Shown here: piece after piece, positions 18,013-34,515 of the stretch
How the letters are laid out: every line of letters begins with the position of its first letter
Position numbering within the stretch: the stretch's first letter is position 1
Assembly (NCBI GenBank): GCA_964387425.1
Contig: CAYLXP010000004.1
Location: 4,246 to 68,245 of the forward strand
Length of the DNA: 64,000 nt
DNA from: an uncultured Victivallales bacterium
Lineage (GTDB): Bacteria > Verrucomicrobiota > Kiritimatiellia > UBA8416
Direction: 5' to 3'
Program-made: the position numbers and the translations under genes
The notes under the pieces: generated by a model
Databases searched by the model: none
What the model was told of the DNA's origin: nothing
Seen by the model: only the letters and a program-made list of their open reading frames with translations

Positions 18013-19521
18013 TCAGTGTCGAGTCTTTGCCTTCTTGCCACCCTTGCCCTTGTTCGGAACCCACCGGAAGTCCTCACCCTCACAGACGAGTCGGATTTCC
18101 TTGCGTTTGGGACCCTTGCCTTGTGGTGCGGGGTCGCTCGGGATGATGGTTCCCATCCTCTTCTTGATGGGAGCATACTCCGGGTTTGCTGCAAGATTGT
18201 TCCATTCGTTGGGGTCGTTGCGTTGGTCGTAAAGCTCCTCGCCATCAGGGCGCGAGATGTAGCGCCAGTTGCGGTTGACGACACTGTACTGATCGTGATC
18301 GGTGGTGATGACCATGCGGTCCTTGGCCCCGTCGGGATTGCCAAAGACGGGAACCAGGCTCTTCCCGTCGATATCGGGATTGGCAGGTAGCTGGCAGAGA
18401 TCGGTCAGGGTCTTGTAGGTGTCGATCAGCCCAACCGTAACGTCGAGCTTCTTGCCTTTCGGAATGCCGGGGCCGGCCCAGATGAACGGCACGTTGGTCG
18501 TGCGCTCCCAGAGCGTATGCTTGGCCCAGCGGGTCTTCTCACCAAGGTGGTAGCCATTGTCGGACCAGAGCACGACGACCGTGTTGTCAGCATAGGGCGA
18601 CGCCTCGAGTGCATCGAGTACACGGCCCAGCATGGCGTCGGTATACGTGCAGGCGGCAAAGTACCCCTGCATCGCCTTCTTCCACAGGCCGTGCTCGACG
18701 AGAGGATCATGCACCTTGCGTCCGCGGCCCTCGGTCTGGCGGCGGATTGCCGGCGGGAGGTCGTCAAGATCGTCCGCCTTGAAGGGCGGCAATTGGATAC
18801 TCTCCAGCGGATACATGTCGAAGTACTTCTTCGGTGCGTAGTTAGGTTTGTGTGGTGCGTAGGTCCCGAATGCGAGGAAGAAGGGCTTGTCGTGCTCTTG
18901 TTTCAGGAAGTCTGCAGCCCAGTTAGCGCATAGCGTGTCGGCCATCCTCTCTTCGTCTTCGTTCGGCATGGCGAAGTGGTCAAACTCCGGCCAGCCGGTC
19001 ACCTTGCCGGTCTCCGCCAGCGGACGCACTGCCTTGGCGTCGATCGGCGCCCCGGGATCCCATGAGCCCAGGCGCCAGCCCTTCTGCTTGAGATCCTCGT
19101 TCCAGATGTACCAGTAGTCGAAGCCGCGCAGGTCGACGAAACCCTGCATGTGGTGATAAACCTTGCCGCCTCCGTAGACCTTGTAGCCGTTGGCCTTGAA
19201 GTACTGGGGAATATCCATGTGCTTCGGAATGTTGTACATGTGCGGTTCTTCGCCGTAGAGGCCGGAGTTGAAGGGCTGCAGACCGGTCATGATGGCTGTA
19301 CGCGACGGCGTGCAGTAGACACCCGGAGCATGGGCATTTGTGAACACGGTTCCGCGCGCCGCGAGCTTGTCGAGGTTAGGCGACTTCACCCGCGGGTCGC
19401 CCATCGCGTTCATCATGTCGTTCCAGTCATCAACAACAAGGAAGAGAACATTGGGGTGGGGGGCGGCTTGGGCTGCTATTCCGAGAAGAAGTACCAGTAA
19501 CAGGCTAAGTCTCACCATCAT
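18013..19521 (-). CDS. arylsulfatase (type I sulfatase, FGly-dependent), secreted
   Basis: A signal peptide is followed by NVLFLVVDDWND (metal-binding start) and the sulfatase signature C-x-P-x-R within VYCTPSRTAIMTGL, so it needs Cys-to-formylglycine maturation. Confidence 0.9.
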   Translation of the reverse strand: MMVRLSLLLVLLLGIAAQAAPHPNVLFLVVDDWNDMMNAMGDPRVKSPNLDKLAARGTVFTNAHAPGVYCTPSRTAIMTGLQPFNSGLYGEEPHMYNIPKHMDIPQYFKANGYKVYGGGKVYHHMQGFVDLRGFDYWYIWNEDLKQKGWRLGSWDPGAPIDAKAVRPLAETGKVTGWPEFDHFAMPNEDEERMADTLCANWAADFLKQEHDKPFFLAFGTYAPHKPNYAPKKYFDMYPLESIQLPPFKADDLDDLPPAIRRQTEGRGRKVHDPLVEHGLWKKAMQGYFAACTYTDAMLGRVLDALEASPYADNTVVVLWSDNGYHLGEKTRWAKHTLWERTTNVPFIWAGPGIPKGKKLDVTVGLIDTYKTLTDLCQLPANPDIDGKSLVPVFGNPDGAKDRMVITTDHDQYSVVNRNWRYISRPDGEELYDQRNDPNEWNNLAANPEYAPIKKRMGTIIPSDPAPQGKGPKRKEIRLVCEGEDFRWVPNKGKGGKKAKTRH

Positions 19522-19595
19522 ATATCTCCCATTATGTGAGCGTGACTAAATAGAACTGTCGACACTCGTCCCTAAGATTCGGAACCGGTGCGGCT

Positions 19596-21680
19596 CTAGC
19601 GGCAGAGCGCATATTGTCTTGGCTCAGCTTGGCCCTCTAGAACCGAGAGAGCCCCGGCGGCCATCGCTTCCATTTCCATGCCGTCCTTGAAGATGATGAT
19701 CTGGGCCAAGTGCCCAACGCGCTTCTTCAGAGTGGCGACGATGCGGTCTGAGCTTGCCATGTTGCCCGTGAGAACGATGGCGTCGACGGGGCCGTCAATG
19801 GCGATGTGCATGGCCCCGATCTCCTTGGCAATCTGGTAGATCATGGCGTAAACAGCCTTCTCGGCCTCTTCATCTCCATCCTGGATGCGCTTCTCAATCT
19901 CCGGTAACGAGTCTTCTCCGATGTAGGACACCAGGCCCGCGCGTTTGGTCAGCTCTTGCTTGAGGGCGACCTTGTCAAACTCGCCGCTGTAGCACAGGTC
20001 GATCAACTCGTTCTGGGGCAGTGTGCCGGCGCGCTGCCGCGTGAAGGGCCCTTCGCCGAGCAGTGCGATGGTGTTGTCCACGATTCTTCCATGTTTGACT
20101 GCTGCCACGGAGATGCCATCCCCGATGTGCGCAAGCAGGAAGCTGGATCGATCGAATGGGCGGCCAATCATGGCAGCGGCTTTTTGGGCCGACGCCCGAA
20201 TGCTCAGAATGTGCCCGGTGCTCTTGCGTTCGATCGGGGCATAGCCGGAGTAGCGGGCCTCCTCCTTTAGTTCATCCGAAACGACTGGATCGACAGAGAA
20301 CGCGGGGATCTTGTAGTGGTGCGCGAGCCGCGCGGCAATCGGAATGCCCAGGTTGGATGCATGATCCATCTCGGCATAGTCACGCACGGCGCTGACTATG
20401 TCCTTCTCTTCGTGGACCTCGCCATTCTCAACCGAGCAGACCTGGTATACGCCGCCCTTGATGCGCTGGTTCTCCCTGTTGAGGAAACCGCCGCGTCCCA
20501 CGACGGCGTCTAATGCGGGTAAGTCGTCGGTCAGAAAGCCCTGGATTTGCTCGACATAGCGTTCGACCTCTTCGTCCATTGCGCTGCCTGTGAGTCCGGA
20601 AACGTGAGGCCTTGCCACCTCGAACTTCTTCAGGCAGTGGCGGTTCTCGAAGAGGGCGAGTTTCGTGGATGCGGCGCCCGGGTTGATGGTGAGGATGTGG
20701 TGGGCCTCCCGCACCTCGGCGGCAGGCGAAGCGCCCGCTTGCTCGGCCTGCTTCCGGAGGTAGTTTGAGTAGATACAGGCGAGGGCAATTGAATCGATCT
20801 TTGATCGTTCGGGATCCGACCGCGATGAAATCACGTAAGGGGTCTTGATGCCCACCGTGACACAGGCCATGCGGGCCGTCTGTTTTGCCACCATACGCAT
20901 GAGCATCTTGTACATGATGTTGGCGGCATCCAGGGTGGGGTTCACGAGAATATCCGCCTGGCCGGCAACCTGGCGCATGGGGGAGTCTGCGGGGCCGTCC
21001 AGTTTCTTCAAGCGGACGGATTCGGGGTCGACGGAAAGGTCGAAAGACAGGGGCCCGTACACAACAGCGTTATCCCAGTGCGCGCTCGCCAGTTCATGGG
21101 CGAGTACCGTGGAGGGGAGGGCCTGCATCACCTTCTCGTTGCCGGCCAGGAGTGCCACCCTGGGCAAAGGAAGGTTCAGGGCGCACTGTGCAACTTCGAC
21201 GGCATTGTCGATCAGTCCAGTCATGCGACTGTAGTTGAGAATGGCCGACACGCCCGGGTCGGTCATGACCATGGGGACTCCATCGCGAATACAGTCCGCC
21301 TGGAAGACCGTGGCGAGTGACATGGTATCGCGTGTGCGAAGCTTCACGAGTTGGCGATTCAGAATAGGAGTGGAGATATTCCCTTTCTGGATGACATTCG
21401 TTCTGCCAGATCGGGCAAGCTCCAGGATGGTCTCTGCGGTCTGCTCCTGGGAATCCGTACCCACAATATCGGCGGTGGGAATTTCGAGCTCCAACCGGGA
21501 TGCCGCTGCAAGCATGTCTTTCTCATTGCCGACAAGAACGCACTGCTTGACATACGGTTTGTCCCGCACGTTGCGATAGAGAAGTAGGTCGCCTTCGCGA
21601 TCCCCGCCCGCAATCGCGATTGTCTGAGGGGTCAGTGATTCGGCGATGCTTTCGAATTGCGCAATTTCTGTGGCGGCCAT
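19596..21680 (-). CDS. fused phosphate butyryl/acetyltransferase (PTA_PTB domain) - butyrate kinase (Buk) protein, copy 1
   Basis: The N-terminal roughly 320 aa is Ptb/Pta-like (…DPGVSAILNY…VISSRSDPERSKIDSIALAC…). The C-terminal roughly 370 aa is butyrate-kinase-like (ILTINPGAASTKLALFEN…IVLTGNMASS…). The track start at 21845 adds a Pro-rich 55-aa extension and would overlap the ACT gene by 109 nt; ATG 21680 (MAATEIAQF) is preferred. Confidence 0.8.
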   Translation of the reverse strand: MAATEIAQFESIAESLTPQTIAIAGGDREGDLLLYRNVRDKPYVKQCVLVGNEKDMLAAASRLELEIPTADIVGTDSQEQTAETILELARSGRTNVIQKGNISTPILNRQLVKLRTRDTMSLATVFQADCIRDGVPMVMTDPGVSAILNYSRMTGLIDNAVEVAQCALNLPLPRVALLAGNEKVMQALPSTVLAHELASAHWDNAVVYGPLSFDLSVDPESVRLKKLDGPADSPMRQVAGQADILVNPTLDAANIMYKMLMRMVAKQTARMACVTVGIKTPYVISSRSDPERSKIDSIALACIYSNYLRKQAEQAGASPAAEVREAHHILTINPGAASTKLALFENRHCLKKFEVARPHVSGLTGSAMDEEVERYVEQIQGFLTDDLPALDAVVGRGGFLNRENQRIKGGVYQVCSVENGEVHEEKDIVSAVRDYAEMDHASNLGIPIAARLAHHYKIPAFSVDPVVSDELKEEARYSGYAPIERKSTGHILSIRASAQKAAAMIGRPFDRSSFLLAHIGDGISVAAVKHGRIVDNTIALLGEGPFTRQRAGTLPQNELIDLCYSGEFDKVALKQELTKRAGLVSYIGEDSLPEIEKRIQDGDEEAEKAVYAMIYQIAKEIGAMHIAIDGPVDAIVLTGNMASSDRIVATLKKRVGHLAQIIIFKDGMEMEAMAAGALSVLEGQAEPRQYALCR

Positions 21681-21736
21681 TTGAGTCACCTTCCCGTTCG
21701 AAGCCCCTTGCCGTTCAGGCTGAGGCTTTGCTGCCC

Positions 21737-22219
21737 CTACAGAGCGGTGATCGCGTAGACCTGGTCGACCAGGATCCCCTGCTTCTTCAGGCGGTGCAGG
21801 ATCGGGTCGAGCTGGTTTGGGGATCCCCCCAGGAAATACGTCCATCCCGTAGAATCGTTGTACATGAGTTCGCAGGTCAGGAAGGAACTCTCGCCTGCGA
21901 CGTCTTTCGGGGCCAGTTTGCGCTTGGTTTTGGTCACCACCGTCTTGCGGAGGTTGTCGCCGAGGTAGGGATGCTCTTCAACCTTCTTGACCTTGGATAG
22001 GCGACTCAGGATTCGCTTGATCGTCGCCTTTTCCTCTTCGGTACAAGTGAACGTAACCAGAACGGTGCCACCGCAGCCGGACGACGTGTCTGACCCGTGC
22101 CCTACAACCGAGTCGAGCGAGATGCTGCGGTTCGAGAACGCGGAGGCGATGCTAGTCAGGGCCCCTGCGCGGTCATCTACCCAGATGCGAATAAACCAAT
22201 GCTTGATTGCCTTGCTCAC
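21737..22219 (-). CDS. ACT-domain protein
   Basis: IRIWVDDRAGALTSIASAFSNRSISLDSV is an ACT-type regulatory fold motif. The protein is 160 aa, and its stop overlaps the upstream Ptb-Buk copy 2 start by 4 nt. Confidence 0.55.
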   Translation of the reverse strand: MSKAIKHWFIRIWVDDRAGALTSIASAFSNRSISLDSVVGHGSDTSSGCGGTVLVTFTCTEEEKATIKRILSRLSKVKKVEEHPYLGDNLRKTVVTKTKRKLAPKDVAGESSFLTCELMYNDSTGWTYFLGGSPNQLDPILHRLKKQGILVDQVYAITAL

Positions 22220-24336
22220 GACGAAACCCTCCTGTTCAAACTGTATTGCAGCGGCTTCTCCCTGCCGCTGAGAACCCGGCAGGCCCCCCTGGCCATGGCC
22301 ACCATTTCGAGCGATTCCCGGTATACTACGATGGGCCCCAGCGATGCGATGCGTCGACGGATACCACGGAGCAGGAGTGATGAGCGTACCATGCCGCCGG
22401 TCAGCACGATGGCTTCGACCTTGTGCTCCACGGCAGCGGCCATGGCCCCGATGTCCTTGGCTACCTGGTAAGCCATCGCTTCTACGACCCGCGCGGCCTT
22501 CTTATCACCACTTAGCGCTAATTCCCCAATTCTCTCCAGGCGATCGTCGCCGAGGTAAGAAACCAGTCCGCCCCGCTTGGTCAGTTCAGTGATTAGCTCG
22601 GCCTTGGACATGCCGCCGTCGTAGCACAGGTCGATCAGCTCCTTCTGCGGCACTCCCCCCGTCCTCTGTGGCGTGAAGGGACCCTCTCCGAGGAGCGCGA
22701 TGGTGTTGTCGATCATGCGTCCCTTGCGAATAGCTGCAATTGTGATTCCACCACCCAGATGCCCCACAACCACGTTTACCGCTTTCGGGTCGCGCTGGTT
22801 GTCCTCGGCAAACTGGTGCACGGCTGCCTTGATGCTCAGCGCGTGCGCCGTGCTCTTGCGCGTGATTCCGGCGTAGCCTGAGAGTTCTGCCTCGGGACAG
22901 AATTCATCAACGACCACGGGGTCCACGGCGTAGGCCGGCAGGGTGAGTCGCCGCGCATATGCCGCGGCCATGGGAATGCCCAGGTTGGATGCATGATCCA
23001 TCTCTGCGAACTCGGTTACCCCGCGCACGATGTCTTCCTGTACGCGCACCTTGTTCCGCTTGACGTCGGCCACCAGGTAGGTTCCGCCCTTGAGCTTGCC
23101 TTTCGGGCGTTTGAGGAATCCGCCGCGGCCCACGATGGCCGTGAGTCCTCGCACCTTGTGCTTGCGCAGAAAGGCGTCGACTTGTTCGATGCGTTCATCG
23201 ACTTCGGCCTGCAGGTCGCTGCCCGGCAGGAGCTTCGATGCGTAGGAGAGTTCCTGTTCGTGAAGGCAGGTGTCATTCTCGAAAACGGCTACCTTGGTGG
23301 ACGTAGAGCCAGGATTGATCGTCAGGATTCTCTGCGCTTTGGCAGCCTTCCGCTTTGCTGTCGCAACCCTTTCGCGGTGTCCCGTGCGTTCTGCATAGAC
23401 ACAGCACAGCGCGATTGAGTCGAGTTTGGTCTCGAGCGGGTCGGAGCGCGAGAGGATGCCGTAGGGGACTTCCACCCCCGTTGTGATTCCGGCCATGGAG
23501 GCATCCCCGTACTTGGCCATGGCCATGATGGTCTTGTAGACGGCGTTGGCCGTGTCGATCCCCGGGCATACCAGCACATCCGCCCGACCTGCCACCTGGC
23601 GCGCATTCCGGGAGGCAGGCATGCCCTTGCAGGAAACCGATTCCATATCTGTGGCCAGGTCAAACGACAGCGGACCGCACACGATCATGTCATTCCACTT
23701 GCGCTCGGCCAGTGCCGCGGCCATCACGGAAGAGTGAAGGGACGGGATAACTTTCTCGTTTGCGGAGAGCAGTGCAACACGCGGTTTCTCGATCCCGGTG
23801 ACGACCCGGCAAACGTCGGCGGCGCTCTCAATGAGGTCGATCAGGCGCCCGTAGGTGCATTCGGTTGTCACACCCGGGTCGGTAAGAAACATGGGGCGCC
23901 CGTCGGCCAGGGGTGCGGCGTCAAACATCGTCACCTGGCCCATGGTGTTGCGGACGCGCAGCTTGAGAATAGCCCGGCTGAGGGTGGGGGTGGAGATGTC
24001 GCCCTTGATGATGATGTCGGCACGACCCTTTCGTACCAAATCAACGGTCTTGGCGGCGGTTTCCTCGTCCGAGGCCGTGTTGAGAATATGGGATTCCGGA
24101 ACGTCAATCCCGACCTTGTGTGTGGCAACCCGGATACGGTCGGCATCGCCGATCAGCAGGCAGTCGCGGATGATGCCGTGGTCCCGGGCCGACTCGAGGA
24201 GCCTCAGGTCATCCTCTCGATGGCCGCCGGGGATGACGACGTTTTTCGGCGCCATCGCCCCGGCAACTTCGAGTAGATCAGAAACACCGGCGACCTTGGG
24301 AAGGTCGCCGGTGTTCCGGTTGTTCGTTTGAGTCAT
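22216..24336 (-). CDS. fused phosphate butyryl/acetyltransferase - butyrate kinase protein, copy 2
   Basis: It has the same architecture as copy 1: a Ptb-like N-terminal half, then RILTINPGSTSTKVAVFEN…AIVLTGGMVRSSLL in the Buk-like C-terminal half. It is a paralog of copy 1. Confidence 0.8.
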   Translation of the reverse strand: MTQTNNRNTGDLPKVAGVSDLLEVAGAMAPKNVVIPGGHREDDLRLLESARDHGIIRDCLLIGDADRIRVATHKVGIDVPESHILNTASDEETAAKTVDLVRKGRADIIIKGDISTPTLSRAILKLRVRNTMGQVTMFDAAPLADGRPMFLTDPGVTTECTYGRLIDLIESAADVCRVVTGIEKPRVALLSANEKVIPSLHSSVMAAALAERKWNDMIVCGPLSFDLATDMESVSCKGMPASRNARQVAGRADVLVCPGIDTANAVYKTIMAMAKYGDASMAGITTGVEVPYGILSRSDPLETKLDSIALCCVYAERTGHRERVATAKRKAAKAQRILTINPGSTSTKVAVFENDTCLHEQELSYASKLLPGSDLQAEVDERIEQVDAFLRKHKVRGLTAIVGRGGFLKRPKGKLKGGTYLVADVKRNKVRVQEDIVRGVTEFAEMDHASNLGIPMAAAYARRLTLPAYAVDPVVVDEFCPEAELSGYAGITRKSTAHALSIKAAVHQFAEDNQRDPKAVNVVVGHLGGGITIAAIRKGRMIDNTIALLGEGPFTPQRTGGVPQKELIDLCYDGGMSKAELITELTKRGGLVSYLGDDRLERIGELALSGDKKAARVVEAMAYQVAKDIGAMAAAVEHKVEAIVLTGGMVRSSLLLRGIRRRIASLGPIVVYRESLEMVAMARGACRVLSGREKPLQYSLNRRVSS

Positions 24337-24362
24337 TGTTCTTTGTCTGTCGTCAGTAGTGA

Positions 24363-24986
24363 CTAGGCCGCAGCAGCTTCAGATCCTGATCCTGCTGTCA
24401 CCTTTGCTTCGTACGCACCGCGCCAGGCGACGGTGATGAAGCCGAAGATCTGGCCCACGATGCAGCCGATCATTTCCGGGACGGCTACGGACATGAATCC
24501 GGGCATGTCGTGAGCGATACCGATCTTGACCGCTTCGCCGGCTTCGTTGAGGCCAACCCCGCCGCCAAGTGTCATGATGGCGAAGAACATGCCTGATCCG
24601 ATGAAGAGGCCGGGAATGAAGTCGAACATAGGCACGCGTTCCAGGCTGATCGCGGGAATAACGATGATGAAGACCGCGAGAGCATAGGACAGGTAGTAGT
24701 TCGGCGCCTCGGCTGAGCCCAGGGGAACCGCCAGCGCATCACCCATCAGCATGATGATGATCGAGGCGATGATACCGCTGAGGTACGCGAGGACGACCTT
24801 CACACCGTTCTTGGGTGTGCACCCGGCGGCGAAGTAGACGGCCCACGCCTGGAACGTGACGAAGATGAGAAGTCCCGGGCCTCCGACGGCCGCGGTTGAG
24901 CCCGGTACGAACTTGGCAATCAGCATGAGAATTGCCGCCTGAACGCCCAGCAGAATAGGGATGATGATGAATTTACCAAATGACAT
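24363..24986 (-). CDS. multi-pass inner-membrane protein (about 6 TM), unknown function, possibly a small transporter or DUF1097-like
   Basis: It is highly hydrophobic (IIIPILLGVQAAILMLIAKFV…, …VVLAYLSGIIASIIIMLMG…, …GLFIGSGMFFAIMTLGGG…) and tightly packed between Ptb-Buk 2 and the LsrF-like gene. Confidence 0.5.
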   Translation of the reverse strand: MSFGKFIIIPILLGVQAAILMLIAKFVPGSTAAVGGPGLLIFVTFQAWAVYFAAGCTPKNGVKVVLAYLSGIIASIIIMLMGDALAVPLGSAEAPNYYLSYALAVFIIVIPAISLERVPMFDFIPGLFIGSGMFFAIMTLGGGVGLNEAGEAVKIGIAHDMPGFMSVAVPEMIGCIVGQIFGFITVAWRGAYEAKVTAGSGSEAAAA

Positions 24987-25000
24987 GATTGTTCTCCTTT

Positions 25001-25879
25001 TTACTTAGATGCTTTGAGGTCGTTAAACATAGTGAAGGCGTCTGCCGGTGTCGCACCGTCATGCACCACATGCCCGACAGCCTTGATCATGGCAATCGGA
25101 TCTTCCGACTGGAACACGTTGCGCCCCATATCAACGCCCGCAGCGCCATCGTTGATGGCCTTGTAGGCGAGCTCGAGCGCTTCGTCCTCGGGAAGCTTCT
25201 TGCCGCCCGCGATCACAATCGGAACCGGACAGCAGGCCGTAACCTTCTCGAAGCCCTCCGTGTAGTAGGTCTTCACGATGTTCGCCCCGTTCTCCGCGCA
25301 GATGCGCGACGCAAGACCGAAGTAGCGTGCATCGCGCGCCATGTCCTTGCCAACCGCCGTGACACCCATCACGGGGATCTCGAAGCGCTGCCCGAGGTCG
25401 GCCAGCTCGTAGAGGTTGGCGATCGTCTGCGCTTCCATGTCGGGATCGCCAATCGCCAGCATGATCGCCATCGCCGAGGCGTTCAGACGCACGGCGTCTT
25501 CCACGTCGATGATCACGTTGTCGTTCAGCTGCGTCAGGATCGAGGTGCCGGCGTCAGAGCGCAGGCAGATCGGCTTGTTGTAGGTCGGCGGGATGCAGGT
25601 GCGGATGATGCCGCGTGCGCCCATCAGGCAGTCTGCATGCTCAACCAGCGGGACGATGTTGAGGTCGATACGCTCCACGCCGGAGGTCGGCCCCATGATG
25701 AACCCGTGGTCAAACGCCAGCATGACCGTCTTGCCGGTGTCGGGCCGGAAGATTCGGGACATGCGGTCCTTCATCCCCCAACCCATGTTGTCGCACCCTT
25801 TCAGGTGGAATCCCTGGCTTTCGGCCGGCTTGTCCAAGCCGAAATCCTTGCCGTCTCTGATGTCGTCTAAATCCGCCAT
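25001..25879 (-). CDS. lsrF: LsrF-type DhnA-family class I aldolase/thiolase (3-hydroxy-5-phosphonooxypentane-2,4-dione thiolase-like)
   Basis: The 292-aa length matches LsrF. The N-terminus [18 protein letters not shown]…HLKGC…WGM…[18 protein letters not shown] closely matches E. coli LsrF as I recall it (MADLDDIKDGKDF…[12 protein letters not shown]…). [28 protein letters not shown](V/I)FQS and IAMIKAV are also conserved. Confidence 0.7.
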
Positions 25880-26514
25880 TACTCTAGTCCTTTCTTCAGT
25901 CCCTCAAATAGAAGCGCCATTGAGGTCGCCCCGGGGTCAACGTGTCCGATTGACCGCTCCCCGATGTTCTTTGCCCGGCCGAACGTGGCCTGCATTTCCT
26001 TCGTCGATTCAGCCCCCTTGACGGCAGCTTCCGCACCAGCAGCCAGTGCCGTAAGAACACAAGGCTGTGCGTCTGCCGATTCCCGAAGGGCGGCCAGTGC
26101 CGGAACGAGCGTGTCGATCATGGTCTTTCCACCCACTTCAGCCCGGGTGTTCTTCCGGAGCTTTGCGACGCCTGACTCCAGCATGGAGACAAACGTGGTG
26201 CAGTCGATGGGACCTTCTTCAGGTGTGGCATTGCTCATGCCGATGAAGAGCGAACCATACAACGGGCTGGTAGAACCGGCGTCCGTCGACATGGCTGCCC
26301 AGCCGATCGCTTTGAGCAACGTTTTGAGCTCATTGCTCTCGTCCTTTTCGATGGTATCAATGATAGCGTCAGCCACCTTTGAGACCGCCGTCCCGTGATC
26401 ACCATCACCGGTAGCCGAGTCGAGCTGGGACAGGTGGTCCCGGTTCTCTTTGAGCAATCCGGCTGCCGTCTGAAGCATACTGACGACAGAGCTGTAATCT
26501 ACTGTTTCCGGCAC
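25879..26514 (-). CDS. dhaL: dihydroxyacetone kinase ADP-binding subunit DhaL
   Basis: The 211-aa length and [20 protein letters not shown]…, an all-helical DhaL-type sequence, match DhaL. Its stop overlaps the LsrF start by 1 nt. Confidence 0.8.
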
Positions 26515-26595
26515 CTCAGGCCTCCTTTTCGAGGTGTTTGTGAAGGATCGAAGATCCCCGCCGCAGGGCGGGGATCTCCGGTAAGGTCTGGTTGC

Positions 26596-27597
26596 CTAGC
26601 GCGTTACCCAGAACGGCGCGTCCGACGGAGCCTTCATCAGTTCGACCAGCTCGTCATCCAGTTTCGCGGCGCACATCTGGAATCCGCCCATTTCCTGAAC
26701 GGTGAGGTACTCACCGACCAGTGCGTGGGCGACGGTTATGCCCTGCGACTCGGCGTAGTTCTTGGTCGCACGGAACACGATGAACTGTTCCATCAGCGTG
26801 GTTGCGCCGGCGCCGTTGATCATGAGCATGATCTTGTCGCCGCTTGCGCAGTTGGCGGCAGGCAGAACCTGCGTGGCCATCTTGACTGCCGTCTCGTCAG
26901 CCGTCAGCATCTTCGAGCTACCCGTGCCGGCTTCGCCGTGCTGGCCCATGCCGATCTCCATCTCGTCGTCCGCGAGGTCGAAAATCGCGCCCCCGGACTG
27001 CGGGTGGGTTGCGGTCTTGAGCGCAACCGCCAGCGTGGCCATGTTGTCGTTGATCTTCTCGGCCACGGCGTAGACTTCGTCCAGGCTCTTGCCGGCCTCG
27101 GCCGCGGCGCCAGCCACCTTGTACAGCGGAATGCAGCCGGCCAGGCCGCGCTTGTCCTCTATCGGAGCGTCGGCGCCCGGTGCAATGTCTTCGTGCGTCA
27201 GGATCATCTTGACGTTGATGCCTTCTTCTTCCGCCATTTCCATGGCCATATTGCCGCTCATGACGTCGCCTTCGTGATTCAGCACCACGAAGAGGATACC
27301 GGCGTCGCGCTTGAGCAGGCGCATGGCTTCGACGACTTTCGGGGCACCCGGGGCGGCGAAGACGTCGCCGACAACCGACGCGTCCAGCATGCCTTCGCCC
27401 ACGAAACCGCTCAGGGCGGGCTCGTGACCGGCGCCGCCGAGCGTGATGATCGCGACTTTGCTCTCATCCTTCGGGGTGGCACGCATGACGATTTTGTCGG
27501 ATACCAGTTTGACCTGCTCCGGGTTGGCGCCGCAGTAGCCTTCCAGCAGTTCGGCGGTGAGGTTGTCGGGATCGTTGATGAATTTCTTCATTGGCAT
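26596..27597 (-). CDS. dhaK: dihydroxyacetone kinase substrate-binding subunit DhaK
   Basis: The 333-aa length, GGAGHEPALSGFVGEGMLDASVVGDVFAAP (the GHEP hemiaminal-His motif) and FVVLNHEGDVM match DhaK. No DhaM-like gene is in the operon. Confidence 0.85.
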   Translation of the reverse strand: MPMKKFINDPDNLTAELLEGYCGANPEQVKLVSDKIVMRATPKDESKVAIITLGGAGHEPALSGFVGEGMLDASVVGDVFAAPGAPKVVEAMRLLKRDAGILFVVLNHEGDVMSGNMAMEMAEEEGINVKMILTHEDIAPGADAPIEDKRGLAGCIPLYKVAGAAAEAGKSLDEVYAVAEKINDNMATLAVALKTATHPQSGGAIFDLADDEMEIGMGQHGEAGTGSSKMLTADETAVKMATQVLPAANCASGDKIMLMINGAGATTLMEQFIVFRATKNYAESQGITVAHALVGEYLTVQEMGGFQMCAAKLDDELVELMKAPSDAPFWVTR

Positions 27598-27624
27598 GAT
27601 GTGTTCTCCTTTTTCTGATGTGAA

Positions 27625-27969
27625 TTAGTATGCGGATCCAGCGTCGCCACCGGACATTTCCATGAACTCGATCGGGCAGCCTTCGCCATCGACGATGAAC
27701 GCGATGCGGAGCGACTCGTTAACGGCGACGGGATCGAGAATGACCTTCTGTCCCGCAATGGCCGCGTCGAGGTCTTCGACGATATAGGCGATATGCGTGT
27801 GATCCTGGATTTCGCGAGGCATTTCGCAGTCGGCGTCGAAACGCAACCACTCAATGTTGTGTTCGCTGTTCGCAAAATCGGTGAGATGGAGCTTCATACC
27901 CTCGGCGTATGTCTCGCCCGCTTTGGACTCTGTTGTGGGGATTCCCACATGGCTGAATGTCTTCGTCAT
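27625..27969 (-). CDS. small VOC (glyoxalase/bleomycin-resistance-like) fold protein
   Basis: The N-terminus FSHVGIPTTESK… and IAYIVEDLDAAI resemble the VOC betaalphabetabetabeta start motifs. The protein is 114 aa and tightly linked to dhaK. Confidence 0.4.
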   Translation of the reverse strand: MTKTFSHVGIPTTESKAGETYAEGMKLHLTDFANSEHNIEWLRFDADCEMPREIQDHTHIAYIVEDLDAAIAGQKVILDPVAVNESLRIAFIVDGEGCPIEFMEMSGGDAGSAY

Positions 27970-27995
27970 CTATCGTCCTCCCGTGTTTGCTGATT

Positions 27996-28742
27996 CTAGT
28001 GACCCGTGCTCTTGAATTCCATGTCCGGCTTACTGAAGTGCACGTGATTGTGGTACGTGGCACCTTCCGTGATGATCGCACCGTCCGGCCCCGCGATGAT
28101 GCCATGCCAGGCTTCGGGATCCTGGAGCTTGTACATGATGTTCTTCTTCGCATCGCGATGGGTGATGTATTTCGACTTGAACCACTTCTCGCCATAGCCC
28201 CAGGGACGCTGGTCTTCGGGAAGGTCGCTGATCTTCATCTCGTCGCCGTGCTTGTACTCACCGTAGAAGCGAACGTCGCCGTAGCGAACGTGCCAGGCTT
28301 CCATTTTCGGCGGCAGGTCTTCCGGGCCGCCCAGGTGGGCGTGCTCGGGCAGCGTCTGTCCGGGCAGCAGGTAGATTTCGTGCAGCAGGTAGCCGAAGTG
28401 TGCATCCTTGAACTTGCCCTTGTACTTGCCGGCGCCGGTGGACTTGTACTCGCCCTTTTCGTTCAGCCAGAAGATGCCGCCCATGCCCAGCGCCAGGATG
28501 TTGCCCTGGTTGAAGTCGCAGACCCAGAATTCATCGGTCTTGAGTACGTCCGGAATCGGGTAGTTGAAACGCTCAAACATGTCGTAGTAGGCCTGCTTGA
28601 CCTCCTCGATATTCATCTTCCCGTCATCATAGAAGCTCTCCACGCATCCTCCTTTTCCAACCTTTGGCGCGGTTGCACACCCCGAAAGGATTCCCGCTAC
28701 TCCGACTGCTACCGACATTGCTACGACATGCCTCTTCTTCAC
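27996..28742 (-). CDS. lipoprotein, D-lyxose ketol-isomerase-like cupin
   Basis: LLPGQTLPEHAHLGGPEDLP and WHVRYGDVRFYGEY resemble the YdaE-type lyxose isomerase motifs (FPGQTCPEHRHPP, FRCRYGKVYLY). The preferred start is GTG 28742, 5 nt after AAAGGAGGG. It gives a classical lipoprotein signal, MKKRHVVAMSVAVGVAGILSGC. The track start at 28817 lacks an RBS and leaves only 26 nt to the divergent AraC gene. Confidence 0.55.
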   Translation of the reverse strand: MKKRHVVAMSVAVGVAGILSGCATAPKVGKGGCVESFYDDGKMNIEEVKQAYYDMFERFNYPIPDVLKTDEFWVCDFNQGNILALGMGGIFWLNEKGEYKSTGAGKYKGKFKDAHFGYLLHEIYLLPGQTLPEHAHLGGPEDLPPKMEAWHVRYGDVRFYGEYKHGDEMKISDLPEDQRPWGYGEKWFKSKYITHRDAKKNIMYKLQDPEAWHGIIAGPDGAIITEGATYHNHVHFSKPDMEFKSTGH

Positions 28743-28843
28743 CACTGCCCTCCTTTTTGTCAACGCGTGTCCTTGCCGCACGATGACCTGTTCCGATTGG
28801 ACCGAAATAGTAGTCACTACGCGAGTAGAAGGGAATAGAAGGA

Positions 28844-29782
28844 ATGATGTTTCTTCTTGTGTTTTTTGACATGGATGTGCAGCCTGTTGGCGGTATGGCG
28901 GAGCGACAAGAACAGATTCGGGTTTCCACCGTCGTTATGAACGGCCTGGTGGAGGAAATTGGCCAGACACTTGGGGTGGGGGTGTTGAATTGTGCACCCG
29001 CGGAACCGACGGTGGAGGTCATTGCCGAGGTAGAGGGTACGGTCGGGTTCTGCTTTCATATGAACCGTGGACTGCAGATTCCTCTACATACGTCGGCTCC
29101 CGGCAAAGCGATTGTGGCATCTCTACTGCCTGATGATCGTGAGGATGTGATCTCGCGGATGTCCTTCAAGGTGTTCACCGACTACACGATCTCGACCCCT
29201 GGTGCATTCAGAACGGAGCTCAAGGAGGTTAGTCAGCTTGGATACTCCATCGATCGGAATGAGCAGGTCCTGAATTGCCACTGTATCGGTGTGCCCGTCT
29301 GCTTTCCTGGCGAGACCAACGTGGCGGCCCTCTGGACCACGGGACCGGCCAACATGCTGCCCGAGGACTCTTTTCCCGAGGTCGCCCGGCTCCTTGCGAA
29401 GGGCGCTGATGAGATCGAGGCGGCCCTGGGTGGAGCGAGCAGGGAGATAAACGCCGAGTACATACACCACGTGGTTGCCCGTGCGATCCAGATGATGGAT
29501 GTGACGCTGAATCAGCGGATGGACATGAAGCAAGTGGCGGCCGACCTCTGCGTGAGTTACTCCTGGTTCCGCCAGGCCTTCAAGAAACGCACCGGCTTGA
29601 GCCCGAATCAGTACCATATGCAGCGGCGGATCGAAAAGGCGAAGGAGCTACTCGCCAGCCCGCATGTAAAGGTCAAGGACGTCTCCGCGCAATTGGGCTT
29701 CTCCGATGAGTGCTACTTCTCCACCCGCTTCAAACAGCAAACCGGCCAGAGCCCGCAGGCATATCGGGATGGGCTGAGCTGA
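28844..29782 (+). CDS. AraC-family transcriptional regulator with N-terminal ligand-binding domain (start possibly ATG 28895)
   Basis: The C-terminal AraC HTH reads …MKQVAADLCVSYSWFRQAFKKRTGLSPNQYHMQRRIEKAKELL…LGFSDECYFSTRFKQQTGQSPQAYR. The gene is divergent from the catabolic operon. Confidence 0.75.
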   Translation: MMFLLVFFDMDVQPVGGMAERQEQIRVSTVVMNGLVEEIGQTLGVGVLNCAPAEPTVEVIAEVEGTVGFCFHMNRGLQIPLHTSAPGKAIVASLLPDDREDVISRMSFKVFTDYTISTPGAFRTELKEVSQLGYSIDRNEQVLNCHCIGVPVCFPGETNVAALWTTGPANMLPEDSFPEVARLLAKGADEIEAALGGASREINAEYIHHVVARAIQMMDVTLNQRMDMKQVAADLCVSYSWFRQAFKKRTGLSPNQYHMQRRIEKAKELLASPHVKVKDVSAQLGFSDECYFSTRFKQQTGQSPQAYRDGLS

Positions 29783-30572: not shown

Positions 30573-30990
30573 GTCGTCTTCCTCTGCCGGACAAGATGTC
30601 CGGCCTACCAAGGAAGTTTCCATGATGTATGATCCGGCGGAGGCAAGACGCCTCGCGCCTGAAACTGGCCTCGAGAGCTACTCGGACTGTCGCATCGGAA
30701 GACGATAGCGGGCGACGAGAGCGCTAGACGATTGATATGATCACTACTCGTTATCCGTTCTCGCCCCCTATCGTCAACCGGTTCCCCTTCTTGTTGGCTC
30801 CATTTCGATCCCGTGTCAAATCGCACAAGTCGATTTATCATAACCCTCATTTTCTGTTGAAGTCCCTTGCTCTACACTGCTCGTGATGAGACGGAGAGAG
30901 TAGTGCAAGCTTCCAGCTTGCGAGTTCACAAGCAAGATGCTTGTGCTACACTATTGGACTACAAGTGAACTGACTGGAGATAAACAGGAC

Positions 30991-33900
30991 ATGAACCCTA
31001 CTACGAAACTGAGAATACTGAGTTTGGCATCCATGCTACTGATCACCGCGTCATCAATGTGGGCAGGCACCTGCACCTTCAGCGACTGGCGCGTGAGTCA
31101 CGAAGGCAAAGTCACAAACTGGGTGGGAAGCGTGAAAGCAACCCAGGGGTTGCCGGAATGGTACGACGAAACCGAATGGCAGATGAATCGCGGCAAACGC
31201 TTCTCCAACAAGAAAGCCGACATCTATGCGGTGTGCGAGGTCACGGCTGATCGCGCCTATACCCAAGGCCTGTCGATATCAGGCCATACCAAAATACGTC
31301 TCAATGGTAGGGAGGTGGAACCGTACGAGAAACTGAACATCTTCAGTTTGGCTCTCAAGCGCGGCAAGAACGTCTTCGAAGTCAAGGCCCTGAAGGGCGG
31401 GAGCAAACTGCTGCTTACACGCGTGAACCTGGATCACATGTTTGTGCCAACCAATGCCAAGATCCGGAATGCGGAGCTCGCGATTAATGCACTGGGGAAG
31501 CGGTATTCTGACTATCCAGCAAAGAAGCATCTTGCGCGCCTGAAGGCGCTCAAGAAGAACAAGGCATCTGACGAAGAGGTCGAGAAACTGCGCTATCGTG
31601 CGCTGGTGTTGGACAACCCCGATGTTGATTTCGACAAGATCCTGTTCCGGGCGTCAAAGAGTACCTCCATGCCGGCCAACTGGCTGGGCAACGCCTCGTA
31701 CATTCGCAGCCGCGGTTCGGAACGCCAGGTGAACTTCAATGATGAGCTGTTGACGCTCAATCTGAAGAACCGCGCCATGGCGCCTGTCTGCAAGGGCGCC
31801 GACTCGCGTGAGGCATTCATGGATATTGCGCTGGATTACGATGGGACGAAGTTCCTCTTCTCCGGTGTCGATCTCGAGAGCAATAGCTTCCAGGTGTACG
31901 AGATGAATGTTGATGGCACCGGTAGGCGGCGCATCACCACGCCGGTACCGGCGATCGACAACTACAATGGGATTTACCTGCCGGGCGGCAAAATCCTCTT
32001 CTGCTCGACATCATCCCTCAACGCCGTGCCATGCGTTTCGGGTAGCCAGTATGTTGGGAACCTCTACGAAATCAACCCCGACGGATCCGGCATGCGCCAG
32101 GTGACCTTTGACCAGGAAAACGACTGGTACCCCTGGGTGACCGACGATGGTCGGGTGATGTACCTGCGCTGGGAGTACACCGACAACGCACACTATTTCA
32201 CGCGGATCCTCATGAAGATGAATCCCGACGGAACCAACCAACGGTCCATCTACGGTTCAAACTCCTATTTCCCGAACACCATGTTCTATGCCAAATCGAT
32301 CCCCGGGCGACCCTCGCAGTTTGCGGCGATCTGTTCGGGGCACCATGGAGTGTCGCGCGCGGGCGAGTTGATCATTTTTGACACGGCCAAGGGTGAGTTC
32401 GAGGCAGATGGTGCTGTGCAGCGGATTCCAGGGCGCGGCGAGGAGGTTGAACCCGCGGTTATCGACCAGTACATGAGTGGCAAGTGGCCGCGGTTTCTGC
32501 ATCCTTATCCGTTGAGCGAGGACTTCTTTCTGGTGTCCGGCCAATTGGATCCCCGGCAGAGATGGTCTCTTTACCTGGTGGATCGCTATGATAACATGAT
32601 CAAGCTCGCCGAGTCCGATCGGCATCTCTACGAGCCCGTGCCCCTGAAAGCGCGTAAGCGTCCCCCCGTCCGGCCTGACAGCCGGAACTTCGCCGCGGAG
32701 GATGCAACGCTATTCATCCAGGACATCTACGAAGGTCCGGGATTGGAAGGGGTTCCCCGCGGGACGGTCAAGTCGCTACGGCTCTTTACTTATGGCTATG
32801 CCTATCGCCAGGTGGGCGGTCATGAGGCTCTTGCTGTTGAGGGCGGTTGGGACACGAAGCGTGTGCTCGGCACGGTGCCCGTAGAGGAGGACGGCTCTGT
32901 CATGTTCAAGATTCCGCACAGCAAGCCGATCTCCATCCAGCCGCTGGATAAAGATGGGCGTGCATTGCAGTTGATGCGTAGCTGGCTGACGGCCATGCCC
33001 GGTGAACGGCTTTCCTGCATTGGTTGCCACGAGCGCAGCAATACGGCGCCGCCGCCACGCGTTGCCGCTGCGGCGCGCAAGGCTCCCGAGAACCTCACGC
33101 CCTGGAGAGGCATTGCGCGTCCGTACGGGTTCGGTTTTAAACGTGAGGTGCAGCCCGTACTCGACAAGTTCTGTGCGGGTTGTCACAAAGGCCAGGATGG
33201 CCGTCCCAACTTCGCAGACGCCACCGAAGAACAGTTCGGTAGGCGGCGCTTCGGCAAATCCTATCTTGCTCTGCATCCCTACGTGCGCCGGCCCGGTCCC
33301 GAGAGCGATATGCATCTGCTTCCGCCCATGGAGTACCACCCATCAACCAGCGAGCTGGTTCAGTTGTTGGAGAAGGGTCACTATGGGGTTGAGTTGGACG
33401 AGGACGCATGGTCCCGCCTGATTACGTGGATCGACCTCAATGTGCCCTACCACGCGACCTGGCTCGAGGAGCGCAACTACGACGAGGCCACCCAACAGAA
33501 GGCCGCCGATACCGTGGCGCTCAAGAAGCGCTACGCCGGTATCGACGACAACATCGAGTGGATGCCTAAACGGCCCATTGAAACGCCGGAATTCATCAAA
33601 CCCAAGCCGGTCAAGCGCACCGCGGATACCGTGACCCTGGATGGTTGGCCCCTCAGCGAGCAGGGCGCGAAAGCGCTCGCGGGTGAGACCAGGAGCTTCA
33701 AGGTTGGCGGGCGCAAAATGACCTTCGTGAAAGTTGCCGCCGGAAAATTCGTGATGGGTTCAAAAGATGGCGCCCTTGATGAAGCTCCGCGGAGCATCGT
33801 TTCGATCGACAAGCCGTTCTGGATGTCCGTGAAGGAGCTCACGAACCGGGAGTACAGCGATTTTGATCCCACGCACGACAGCGGGGCGATCGATCAGCAG

Positions 33901-34515
33901 TGGAAAGACCACATCTTTCCCGGCTATCCCGCGGGCGAGCCGGAAATGCCGGTCATTCGCGTCAGCTGGAACGAGGCGATGGCATACTGCAAGTGGGCCT
34001 CGGAGGAGAGCGGGGTCAAGGTCTCGCTGCCGACCGAAGCGCAGTGGGAATGGGCGGCCCGTGCCGGCAGTGGCGATGGTTTCCATTTTGAGAAAGCGCA
34101 GATAGCGGAATATGCAAACCTGGCCGACGAGAGCATCGGGTTGTTGGCCGTGAAGGGCGTGGATCCAAAACCCATCTCCGAAAGCTCGCGCTCACCGGTG
34201 ACTGACTTCGTTCCGCGCGATGCATCATTCGACGATGGCCGCCTGACGCCGTCCGGTACGGCGCAGTATGCCGCGAATCCGTGGGGACTGTTCGATATGC
34301 ACGGCAACGTCTCCGAATGGACGCGCTCCGACTACGCCGCCTACCCGTACAAGGCCGACGACGGCCGCAACGGCGGGAACGTTGACGTGCGCAAGGTGGC
34401 CCGTGGAGGCTCGTGGCGTGATCGTCCGCACCGCGCGACGGCTTCATTCCGCCTGCCGTACGAAGCGCACCAGAAGGTCTTCAACGTCGGCATTCGTCTT
34501 GTGATCGAGGAGTAA
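30991..34515 (+). CDS. paralog of the PD40 beta-propeller, two-CxxCH, FGE-sulfatase domain fusion protein (different N-terminal domain)
   Basis: A signal peptide MNPTTKLRILSLASMLLITASSMWA begins at ATG 30991. It is about 60% identical to the 11911-15483 protein across the propeller and haem regions (FIQDIYEGPGLEGVPRG…LSCIGCHERS…FCAGCHKGQDG). The C-terminal FGE domain contains FWMSVKELTNREYSDF, WEWAARAG and HGNVSEWT…GGSWRD. Confidence 0.75.
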   Translation: MNPTTKLRILSLASMLLITASSMWAGTCTFSDWRVSHEGKVTNWVGSVKATQGLPEWYDETEWQMNRGKRFSNKKADIYAVCEVTADRAYTQGLSISGHTKIRLNGREVEPYEKLNIFSLALKRGKNVFEVKALKGGSKLLLTRVNLDHMFVPTNAKIRNAELAINALGKRYSDYPAKKHLARLKALKKNKASDEEVEKLRYRALVLDNPDVDFDKILFRASKSTSMPANWLGNASYIRSRGSERQVNFNDELLTLNLKNRAMAPVCKGADSREAFMDIALDYDGTKFLFSGVDLESNSFQVYEMNVDGTGRRRITTPVPAIDNYNGIYLPGGKILFCSTSSLNAVPCVSGSQYVGNLYEINPDGSGMRQVTFDQENDWYPWVTDDGRVMYLRWEYTDNAHYFTRILMKMNPDGTNQRSIYGSNSYFPNTMFYAKSIPGRPSQFAAICSGHHGVSRAGELIIFDTAKGEFEADGAVQRIPGRGEEVEPAVIDQYMSGKWPRFLHPYPLSEDFFLVSGQLDPRQRWSLYLVDRYDNMIKLAESDRHLYEPVPLKARKRPPVRPDSRNFAAEDATLFIQDIYEGPGLEGVPRGTVKSLRLFTYGYAYRQVGGHEALAVEGGWDTKRVLGTVPVEEDGSVMFKIPHSKPISIQPLDKDGRALQLMRSWLTAMPGERLSCIGCHERSNTAPPPRVAAAARKAPENLTPWRGIARPYGFGFKREVQPVLDKFCAGCHKGQDGRPNFADATEEQFGRRRFGKSYLALHPYVRRPGPESDMHLLPPMEYHPSTSELVQLLEKGHYGVELDEDAWSRLITWIDLNVPYHATWLEERNYDEATQQKAADTVALKKRYAGIDDNIEWMPKRPIETPEFIKPKPVKRTADTVTLDGWPLSEQGAKALAGETRSFKVGGRKMTFVKVAAGKFVMGSKDGALDEAPRSIVSIDKPFWMSVKELTNREYSDFDPTHDSGAIDQQWKDHIFPGYPAGEPEMPVIRVSWNEAMAYCKWASEESGVKVSLPTEAQWEWAARAGSGDGFHFEKAQIAEYANLADESIGLLAVKGVDPKPISESSRSPVTDFVPRDASFDDGRLTPSGTAQYAANPWGLFDMHGNVSEWTRSDYAAYPYKADDGRNGGNVDVRKVARGGSWRDRPHRATASFRLPYEAHQKVFNVGIRLVIEE

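Follow-up and report, generated by a model that had tools for sequence, protein, structure and literature searches.

Whether the closely packed minus-strand genes of an uncultured Victivallales bacterium serve one pathway, and what that pathway consumes, was asked of a 64,000-nucleotide stretch of contig CAYLXP010000004.1 (called here the window). Ten genes of one direction lie at 18013-28742, and the sequence-only reading of this DNA had taken the first nine for a candidate undescribed catabolic operon with a homologue of the thiolase LsrF. The conserved unit was found to be VOC-DhaK-DhaL-LsrF, usually with an exported cupin, and not the nine-gene set. According to the scheme set out below, to which we give slightly less than an even chance as a whole, cupin-VOC-DhaK-DhaL-LsrF would catabolise a small keto-sugar thiolytically and the neighbouring Ptb-Buk and ACT proteins would use the product to make ATP. 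Open reading frame coordinates were taken from the DNA of the window, and Pfam and NCBIfam served as profile libraries. The five genes of the core and its exported partner are as follows.

27996..28742, minus strand: lipoprotein cupin with the D-lyxose-isomerase fold (maximal open reading frame to 28817, 273 aa)
27625..27969, minus strand: VOC (glyoxalase-fold) metalloenzyme of 114 aa, cytoplasmic, candidate ketol isomerase
26596..27597, minus strand: DhaK, substrate-binding subunit of a dihydroxyacetone-type kinase (Dak1, 344 bits)
25879..26514, minus strand: DhaL, nucleotide-binding subunit (Dak2; TIGR02365, 163 bits against a cut-off of 138)
25001..25879, minus strand: Schiff-base (class I) enzyme of the LsrF family, predicted to act as a CoA-dependent thiolase that releases dihydroxyacetone phosphate (DHAP) (NF006081)

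The last of these was assigned with NF006081, the NCBIfam model for LsrF, 3-hydroxy-5-phosphonooxypentane-2,4-dione (P-HPD) thiolase, against which it scored 452.3 bits (equivalog cut-off 297) with positions 1-289 of 291 aligned. Over its full length it shares 58% identity with E. coli LsrF, and it matches PDB 3gkf/4p2v with an E-value of 1e-108. The residues with assigned roles in LsrF are the Schiff-base Lys203, the general base Asp57 and the phosphate site His58/Gly226/Gly227/Gly253/Arg254, and Asp251 sets LsrF apart from fructose-1,6-bisphosphate (FBP) aldolase and 2-amino-3,7-dideoxy-D-threo-hept-6-ulosonate (ADH) synthase, which have Ala there (PMC2728841). The window enzyme retains D57, H58, K203, G226, G227, D251, M252, G253 and R254, and all nine are identical in 20 homologues from bacteria of the Planctomycetes-Verrucomicrobia-Chlamydiae (PVC) group. 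With every LsrF residue kept, Asp251 included, it does not turn out to be an ordinary FBP aldolase or ADH synthase lacking them, the outcome that would have refuted the sequence-only reading; from these residues and scores it is a genuine LsrF-family member, for which thiolase activity is predicted. To our knowledge no other enzyme of the DhnA type has been shown to work as a thiolase, and LsrF itself has so far been described only in the quenching of autoinducer-2 (AI-2) by enteric bacteria.

The distribution of the core was followed from two directions. A scan with a cupin alignment, limited to one genome per species, gave 80 loci, all in metagenome-assembled genomes, from Kiritimatiellae, Verrucomicrobiota (Puniceicoccaceae, Akkermansiaceae), Lentisphaerota/Victivallales and also Planctomycetota (Phycisphaerae, Sedimentisphaerales, Pirellulales). 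Based on tblastn with the window proteins, cupin and DhaK/DhaL were found together in 34 PVC loci, usually with VOC and LsrF and in several gene orders. The cupins linked to DhaK form clades of their own in the cupin tree, and LsrF was also present in 23 of the 32 DhaK/DhaL-linked loci counted alongside that tree. A metagenome scan with the window LsrF gave 80 loci at 71-82% identity, with GC contents of 0.37-0.67, from marine, digester and human-gut habitats, human-gut assemblies among them. Upstream of LsrF, where DNA exists in these loci, DhaL was found in 57/59, DhaK in 43/46, VOC in 40/42 and a detectable cupin in 25/39. Greedy calling of open reading frames in high-GC loci produces antisense artefacts, and the neighbour counts given here rest on tblastn and on Pfam searches of selected reading frames.

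The core was thus seen in more than 100 independent loci of Kiritimatiellae, Verrucomicrobiota, Lentisphaerota and Planctomycetota and of anaerobic and gut metagenomes, and the gene order of the window stands on at least 24 metagenome contigs of its own population, each with an identical LsrF. On both counts the arrangement is far beyond chance. The full set of nine was seen solely in that population, so the neighbourhood search did not bear out the nine genes as one conserved unit; Ptb-Buk 1 and ACT form a separate module. Full-text searches of the literature found no description of the module, nor of an LsrF homologue in PVC bacteria, and papers on the physiology of Kiritimatiellales leave these genes unmentioned, which agrees with the undescribed status first given to the gene set. 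The component enzyme families are known; their combination is not.

Downstream of LsrF the cluster of the window continues with five genes.

24363..24986, minus strand: DUF1097 polytopic membrane protein, candidate transporter (PF06496, 52.8 bits)
22216..24336, minus strand: Ptb-Buk fusion 1, phosphotransacylase plus acyl kinase (PTA_PTB and Acetate_kinase)
21737..22219, minus strand: ACT-domain protein of 160 aa (ACT, 29 bits; weak matches like the acetohydroxyacid synthase small subunit)
19596..21680, minus strand: Ptb-Buk fusion 2, 694 aa, paralogue of fusion 1
18013..19521, minus strand: S1 sulfatase (Sulfatase and SGSH_C), 74 nt downstream of Ptb-Buk 2

From cupin to sulfatase the intergenic gaps are 26, 27, 81, -1, 14, 26, -4, 56 and 74 nt. 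The nine genes first described are present at their predicted positions, with gaps of -4 to 81 nt, and the terminator scan saw no terminator-like site on the minus strand inside the cluster; an Rfam scan of the cluster gave no element, and the promoter, terminator and Rfam scans together were not informative. The sulfatase is probably the tenth and last gene of the transcription unit. That the whole region is a single transcription unit assembled from two modules is part of the overall scheme and shares its tentative standing. When window positions 25879-28742 were compared with four related loci (L010, L012, L033 and L028; loci are numbered with the prefix L), cupin, VOC and LsrF were nearest (66-89%) to one genome set and DhaK, DhaL and DUF1097 (70-91%) to another. 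This mosaic of nearest relatives suggests that two versions of the module recombined in the window cluster.

The kinase subunits retain conserved motifs of their families. The 90% cluster of the window DhaK includes a protein named from the Kiritimatiellae, the class to which the source, a marine bacterium, belongs. The nearest PDB structure to DhaK is that of L. lactis (3ct4, E 8e-64), the GHEP, NxxGD and GxHGE motifs are retained, and in the alignment so are the hemiaminal His and the catalytic Asp/His; against TIGR02363 the protein scored 318.7 bits, under the equivalog cut-off of 406.25 bits. In DhaL the GDGDHG motif aligns with E. coli DhaL (3pnl_B), and the Asp triad is present. Separate DhaK and DhaL with conserved substrate- and nucleotide-site motifs are shared with the DhaKLM systems of E. 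coli and Lactococcus lactis. Unlike those systems, the module loci are without DhaM or a phosphotransferase system (PTS), the window DhaK lies below its equivalog cut-off, and DhaKL is always set between the VOC gene and LsrF. From this fixed position, the substrate of DhaKL is probably something other than free dihydroxyacetone.

Neither the cupin nor the VOC protein matched a Pfam or NCBIfam profile even at E<=10, and structure prediction was therefore needed for both. The VOC protein does not reach a Pfam gathering score. Its AlphaFold2 model (predicted local distance difference test, pLDDT, 87) best matched PDB 2r6u and the C. acetobutylicum glyoxalase I structures 2qh0/3hdp, and it has the paired beta-alpha-beta-beta-beta fold with an H/E/H/E site that defines the VOC / glyoxalase I superfamily. 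Among relatives down to 31-51% identity, H7, E40 and E101 do not vary and H59 hardly does, so that the metal site is, by alignment, a complete H/E/H/E site of the glyoxalase-I type; such sites carry out enediol isomerase chemistry. The family comprises 388 representatives at E<=1e-10 in a library of 1.8 billion proteins, has no Pfam model of its own and is essentially invisible to Pfam. Some of its members (P0298-P0302, P0312, P0313) are tandem duplications of 214-276 aa with two matched stretches.

The cupin also falls outside the D-lyxose/D-mannose isomerase profile PF07385, and by phmmer it matched the D-lyxose isomerase of B. subtilis (2y0o) weakly (E 1e-4). Its AlphaFold model, with a core pLDDT above 85 and a low-confidence N-terminus, has D-lyxose isomerases 7nzo/2y0o as best Foldseek matches (template modelling score 0.71-0.79, E 1e-8), followed by L-ribose isomerases. 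In 15 homologues H159/H161 (in PEHxH), E173 and H238 do not vary, and they can be aligned with the motifs of 2y0o; the model and the alignment thus give a His/His/Glu/His metal site in a D-lyxose-isomerase fold. The GTG at 28742 is preceded by AGGAGG 6 nt upstream and is the likely start; from it the N-terminus reads MKKRHVVAMSVAVGVAGILSG|C, a lipoprotein signal with a lipobox. Homologues in nearly all lineages carry twin-arginine (RRxxLK) or Sec-type signals with a lipobox. The sole examined homologue without a signal peptide, at 10880-11560 of L103, is located downstream of LsrF. Judged by these signals the cupin acts extracytoplasmically. The gene identities of the sequence-only reading, and the folds it gave to the cupin and the VOC protein, were therefore upheld by profile searches and AlphaFold models; for the lipoprotein cupin the fold and ligands stand, but the export signals place its step outside the cytoplasm and not in a cytoplasmic front end.

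A second line of evidence concerns what happens to the product of LsrF. The Buk halves of fusions 1 and 2 scored 333 and 321 bits against TIGR02707 (cut-off 289), and the Ptb halves 166 and 140 bits against TIGR02706 (cut-off 410), with the PTA_PTB Pfam domain present. Ptb-Buk 2 is 45.5% identical to Ptb-Buk 1 and most likely begins at 21680, the start chosen by gene callers, which is preceded by GGAAGG. Both fusions exist as described, but they are not in tandem in the strict sense, as the ACT gene sits between them. This gene overlaps Ptb-Buk 1 by 4 nt, and its product is the probable regulatory partner of Ptb-Buk 1. The single-chain Ptb-Buk family gave 455 matches at E<=1e-20 in Verrucomicrobiota, Planctomycetota, Brocadiia, Nitrospirota and others, mostly labelled just 'butyrate kinase'. 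Relatives of fusion 1 at 67-74% identity were found elsewhere as PtbBuk-ACT modules. The ACT gene following Ptb-Buk in L095 is 70% identical to that of the window, and ACT was also found in L097 and L103; from the similarity between the ACT genes of L095 and the window, PtbBuk1-ACT is a module in its own right.

Some smaller features of these modules were recorded. Fusion-1-type Ptb-Buk is always followed by the 160-aa ACT protein (window; L095, L096, L097, L103), and its relatives have before it a conserved protein of 154 aa with no Pfam match. In L095 and L097, where this protein precedes Ptb-Buk, its membership of DUF1097 was considered and rejected. For relatives of fusion 1 with 67-68% identity, 154-aa protein, PtbBuk and ACT stand together without LsrF, and in one case the genes of a four-subunit 2-oxoacid:ferredoxin oxidoreductase (POR) come next.

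Relative to the core, Ptb-Buk stands after LsrF/DUF1097 (window), directly after LsrF (L028) or upstream of VOC (L103), and a lone Buk was found in L010. In other core loci a YiiD_C thioesterase (L012, L015, L016, L091) or, in seven of Phycisphaerae type, four POR subunits (L009, L034, L036, L039, L040, L046, L054) are found. The predicted link between LsrF and acyl-CoA-consuming enzymes thus recurs in independent arrangements, with Ptb-Buk or Buk in the window, L028, L103 and L010 and with thioesterase or POR elsewhere. A gene for acyl-CoA handling was found in 14 of the 34 core loci and in 1 of 53 loci with the cupin only. As the three unrelated enzyme types flanking the core share just acyl-CoA as a substrate, they point to a CoA thioester as the product, and on this pattern of genes CoA-dependent cleavage to DHAP and acyl-CoA is favoured.

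The chemistry of the core can be put together from both of its ends. The hemiaminal chemistry of DhaK requires a carbonyl adjacent to the phosphorylated hydroxyl, and P-HPD, the substrate of LsrF, has that end; LsrF forms a Schiff base at the ketone beside the phosphate and transfers the acyl group of a 2,4-diketone to CoA. Taken together, they make R-CO-CHOH-CO-CH2OP, a 1-phospho-3-hydroxy-2,4-diketone, the likely intermediate, from which DHAP and R-CO-SCoA would be formed. Module 1 (cupin-VOC-DhaK-DhaL-LsrF) would accordingly serve a small keto-sugar, that is, a diulose or hydroxy-diketone. In the order that we infer, the lipoprotein cupin would begin outside the cytoplasm with a ketol or aldose-ketose isomerisation giving a hydroxyacetone-type end (CO-CH2OH), its substrate perhaps being produced by neighbouring exported haem-c proteins. 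The compound would then be imported, with DUF1097 as the candidate transporter here and MFS or SSF proteins in other lineages, and its primary hydroxyl beside the ketone would be phosphorylated by DhaK/DhaL, presumably with ATP as phosphoryl donor. The VOC metalloenzyme, as a functional analogue of LsrG, may move the carbonyl through an enediol to give the 1-phospho-3-hydroxy-2,4-diketone. The LsrF homologue would form its Schiff base through Lys203 and pass the acyl group to CoA, yielding DHAP and acetyl-, glycolyl- or lactyl-CoA; all three acyl groups would fit. Module 2 (Ptb-Buk 1 with ACT, and Ptb-Buk 2) would turn the acyl-CoA first into acyl-phosphate and from this release the acid while forming ATP.

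The genes around the cluster bear on where the substrate of the kinase could come from.

28844..29782, plus strand: divergent regulator with an IclR-type effector domain and an AraC-type helix-turn-helix (HTH)
30937..34515, plus strand: exported di-haem beta-propeller protein like hydrazine synthase (HZS) alpha, with a C-terminal domain of the formylglycine-generating enzyme (FGE) fold (HZS_alpha and FGE-sulfatase)

Exported HZS_alpha plus FGE-sulfatase proteins of about 1100-1300 aa recur, and the window has two copies, at 30937-34515 and 11797-15483. Over the first 900 residues such a protein can be aligned colinearly with hydrazine synthase alpha (PDB 5c2v_A), both CXXCH haem sites included. 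The FGE-fold domain is without the catalytic Cys pair and its nearest relatives are PorK/GldK and PvdO, and an assignment as a true formylglycine-generating enzyme was rejected on these grounds. The copy at 11797-15483 additionally carries a discoidin (F5/8 type C) domain. HZS/FGE proteins often neighbour the core in PVC bacteria that are not anammox organisms: one of them, a beta-propeller/di-haem protein like cytochrome c peroxidase (CCP) and MauG, or a Mala_s_1-like propeller protein was found near the core in 17 of 34 PVC loci. The protein at 30937-34515 is a likely extracytoplasmic partner of the module. A gene for fused ResB/CcsA cytochrome c biogenesis proteins lies inside the cluster in 6 of 30 metagenome loci, and its embedding there implies that the module includes the haem protein as an intrinsic component. 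In L174, from the human gut, the set comprises FkbO/RidA-like, cupin, HZS/FGE, ResB-CcsA, VOC, DhaK, DhaL, LsrF, Mala_s_1-like and MFS genes, with ResB/CcsA at 5418-7916 between the HZS/FGE and VOC genes. In L161 a DUF1080 '3-keto-disaccharide hydrolase' gene is found between DhaL and LsrF.

The exported cupin, the haem proteins, ResB/CcsA and DUF1080 together suggest that the kinase substrate may be made outside the cytoplasm, possibly via an oxidative step. A wider version of the thiolytic scheme can be built on this. VOC-DhaKL-LsrF with the exported cupin would then be the cytoplasmic half of a widespread unrecognised sugar pathway: exported haem-c proteins with lectin-like (FGE-fold or discoidin) domains would oxidise sugars or glycans to keto-sugars, the cupin would turn these into diuloses, and after import phosphorylation, isomerisation and a CoA-dependent split would give DHAP and hydroxyacyl- or acetyl-CoA. 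Anaerobic PVC bacteria, gut species included, would in this way gain one extra ATP per sugar via Ptb-Buk. That all of these steps hold jointly is unlikely in our estimate.

In other lineages the module often has a further protein of about 380 aa, FkbO/Hyg5-like (chorismatase-type) with a RidA domain, which the 64-kb window lacks. Its gene was seen at 8168-9295 of L094, at 5190-6344 of L117, in L168 and L167/L173-175, and downstream of LsrF in L137, L138, L141, L147, L149, L150, L162 and L165. In the window, the HZS/FGE gene is followed by a Gfo/Idh/MocA oxidoreductase with a Tat signal (34706-35983) and a HEAT plus PA14 protein (35964-38432). The regulator matches IclR_C (71 bits) and HTH_18/HTH_AraC. 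It had been described as a divergent AraC regulator with a ligand domain; it is divergent and its HTH is of the AraC type, but the effector domain is IclR_C and not that of a classical AraC protein. Classical IclR regulators occupy the same position in L010 and L091.

GH29 fucosidase genes flank the region in the window, at 2434-3921 and at 38611-41739 (a double GH29 with a carbohydrate-binding module), and a substrate derived from fucose or another 6-deoxyhexose had been proposed. Comparison gave this no support: in the two sets of long loci GH29 was near the core in 2/26 and 0/38, and sulfatases in 5/26 and 0/38, so that sulfatases are not a general partner and a fucose-specific pathway is not favoured by the neighbourhood. 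The recurrent partners are instead the exported haem-c proteins, which the sequence-only reading had not taken into account. The homologous cluster of L010 does contain two sulfatase genes.

Several observations weigh against thiolysis coupled to ATP formation. No homologue of DhaM or another PTS partner was found in the DNA covered, which comprised the window and the fetched loci and not the rest of the genome; this bears on the phosphoryl donor. No transporter is conserved across the loci; of 87 cupin loci, 7 have DUF1097 next to the core (L010, L012, L015, L033, L062 and L091 among them). The 14 core loci with an acyl-CoA gene represent about four lineages, so that their counts are not independent and the contrast with the cupin-only loci is suggestive, not a clean statistic, and 20 of the 34 core loci show no such gene nearby. 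Ptb-Buk1-ACT, which also occurs away from LsrF, alone or with POR, could be a general fermentation module that is here by chance or for co-expression. In a neighbour-joining tree with a root placed on two DhnA-type aldolases, the 103 sequences linked to DhaKL fall together and E. coli LsrF branches off as their sister; a position nested within them was not seen, and the substrate of the module may for this reason differ. In two Verrucomicrobia, the slot after DhaL holds a DhnA/ADH-synthase-like aldolase of 24-26% identity (L032, 8961-9791; L066, about 6726-7523), with Val-Tyr where LsrF has Asp251-Met252, and this replacement would fit aldol cleavage equally well. The replacement helps an alternative in which the cupin forms a ketose, DhaKL phosphorylates it to the ketose-1-phosphate and the LsrF homologue cleaves this as an ordinary class I aldolase would, with Ptb-Buk/ACT an unrelated fermentation module next to it. 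It would be a non-orthologous counterpart of the isomerase-kinase-aldolase schemes for L-fucose (FucI/K/A), L-rhamnose and 5-deoxyribose (DrdI/K/A), with DHAP and lactaldehyde or acetaldehyde as products. Members of the DhnA/DeoC superfamily are mostly aldolases, a FucO-like iron-dependent alcohol dehydrogenase lies near the core in L091, Ptb-Buk-ACT exists independently of the core, and the window cluster is flanked by fucosidases and a sulfatase. Against it, GH29 neighbours are rare, Asp251 and all other LsrF active-site residues are invariant in more than 20 homologues checked, and the equivalog-level score is one for the thiolase family. An aldolase role would also leave the always-present VOC enzyme without a role and the enrichment of acyl-CoA enzymes beside the core (14/34 against 1/53) unaccounted for, and we consider it rather improbable.

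With its 58% identity to E. coli LsrF and the LsrF residues all retained, the window enzyme also invites an explanation by non-orthologous scavenging of 4,5-dihydroxy-2,3-pentanedione (DPD), the AI-2 precursor. The exported cupin would turn DPD into 3,5-dihydroxy-2,4-pentanedione, which would be imported and phosphorylated by DhaKL to P-HPD; LsrF would then give DHAP and acetyl-CoA, and Ptb-Buk acetate and ATP. P-HPD in its unphosphorylated form has the hydroxyacetone end needed by the chemistry of DhaK, and the marine, digester and human-gut habitats, with no tie to particular glycoside hydrolases, fit a ubiquitous compound. A canonical Lsr system was nevertheless rejected, as LsrACDB, LsrK, LsrG and LsrR do not stand beside LsrF: tblastn with E. 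coli K-12 proteins found none of them, either in the window or among the roughly 95 PVC loci, and in the 80 metagenome loci nothing beyond one weak match to an LsrA-like ABC ATPase (L110). Large haem-c proteins, cytochrome c biogenesis, DUF1080 and FkbO/RidA-like genes are hard to justify for a trace signal, and the DhaKL-linked LsrFs form a clade apart from that of E. coli, so that the odds seem clearly against AI-2 scavenging. Nine unrelated neighbours with no shared pathway would agree with the mosaic origin of the cluster and with the restriction of the full set to the population of the window. For the core this is already contradicted by the four to five genes kept in over 100 loci across phyla and GC contents, and overlaps or spacings of 14-81 nt with no internal terminator, as well as the joining of Ptb-Buk to the core in at least three gene orders, make such an accident extremely improbable.

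The tentative thiolytic scheme may be placed beside known systems. With the Lsr pathway for AI-2 in E. coli and Salmonella it shares a last enzyme that is a true LsrF-family protein and, as proposed, the logic by which a hydroxy-diketone is phosphorylated, its carbonyl shifted and the product cleaved to DHAP and acyl-CoA. It differs in having DhaK/DhaL in place of the FGGY kinase LsrK and a VOC-fold isomerase candidate in place of the ABM-fold LsrG, in being without the LsrACDB transporter and LsrR, and in adding the exported cupin, exported haem-c proteins and coupling to Ptb-Buk; its LsrFs are a sister clade. FucI/FucK/FucA and DrdI/DrdK/DrdA likewise form a ketose, phosphorylate it at position 1 and cleave C3-C4 to DHAP, whereas the three enzymes of the module come from other families, its isomerase is exported, a VOC enzyme is added, and the class II aldolase of those routes is replaced by a member of the thiolase-type LsrF family.

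The Ptb/Buk modules of fermenters (Clostridium butyrate; Enterococcus/Bacillus ptb-buk-bkd) have the same pairing of phosphotransacylase and acyl kinase, with POR-type neighbours in relatives. In the window, unlike in those modules, fusions of about 700 aa occur in two copies behind LsrF with an ACT partner, and their Ptb halves lie far below the Ptb equivalog cut-offs. Periplasmic keto-glycoside pathways (the glucoside 3-dehydrogenase/3-keto-disaccharide hydrolase of Agrobacterium; oxidative cleavage by Gfo/Idh/MocA enzymes) also have extracytoplasmic redox proteins, and the DUF1080 gene in the L161 cluster and the Tat-exported Gfo/Idh/MocA protein beside the haem protein of the window are further likenesses. 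The haem proteins of the module, however, are hydrazine-synthase-alpha-like and not FAD or Gfo dehydrogenases, and in the pathways known so far the keto-sugar is reduced to sugar again, with no phosphorylation or thiolytic cleavage; the link is a lead only.

The LsrF family is the fixed end-point of a different and far more widespread module than the one in which it is known, found in PVC polysaccharide degraders and in digester and human-gut anaerobes. If its cleavage is thiolytic here, the module would be a new way to substrate-level ATP from a sugar-derived diketone, and would give a function to several families so far without annotation, namely the cupin, the VOC family of 105-115 aa, DUF1097 and the HZS-alpha/FGE-fold proteins. 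As the relevant enzymes are small and soluble, the hypothesis is directly testable. Metagenome matches to 'lsrF' would then be read as catabolism and not as quorum quenching, and, should the oxidative steps outside the cytoplasm also hold, the quenching of AI-2 by LsrF in enteric bacteria would be an offshoot of a family that is far larger and mainly catabolic.

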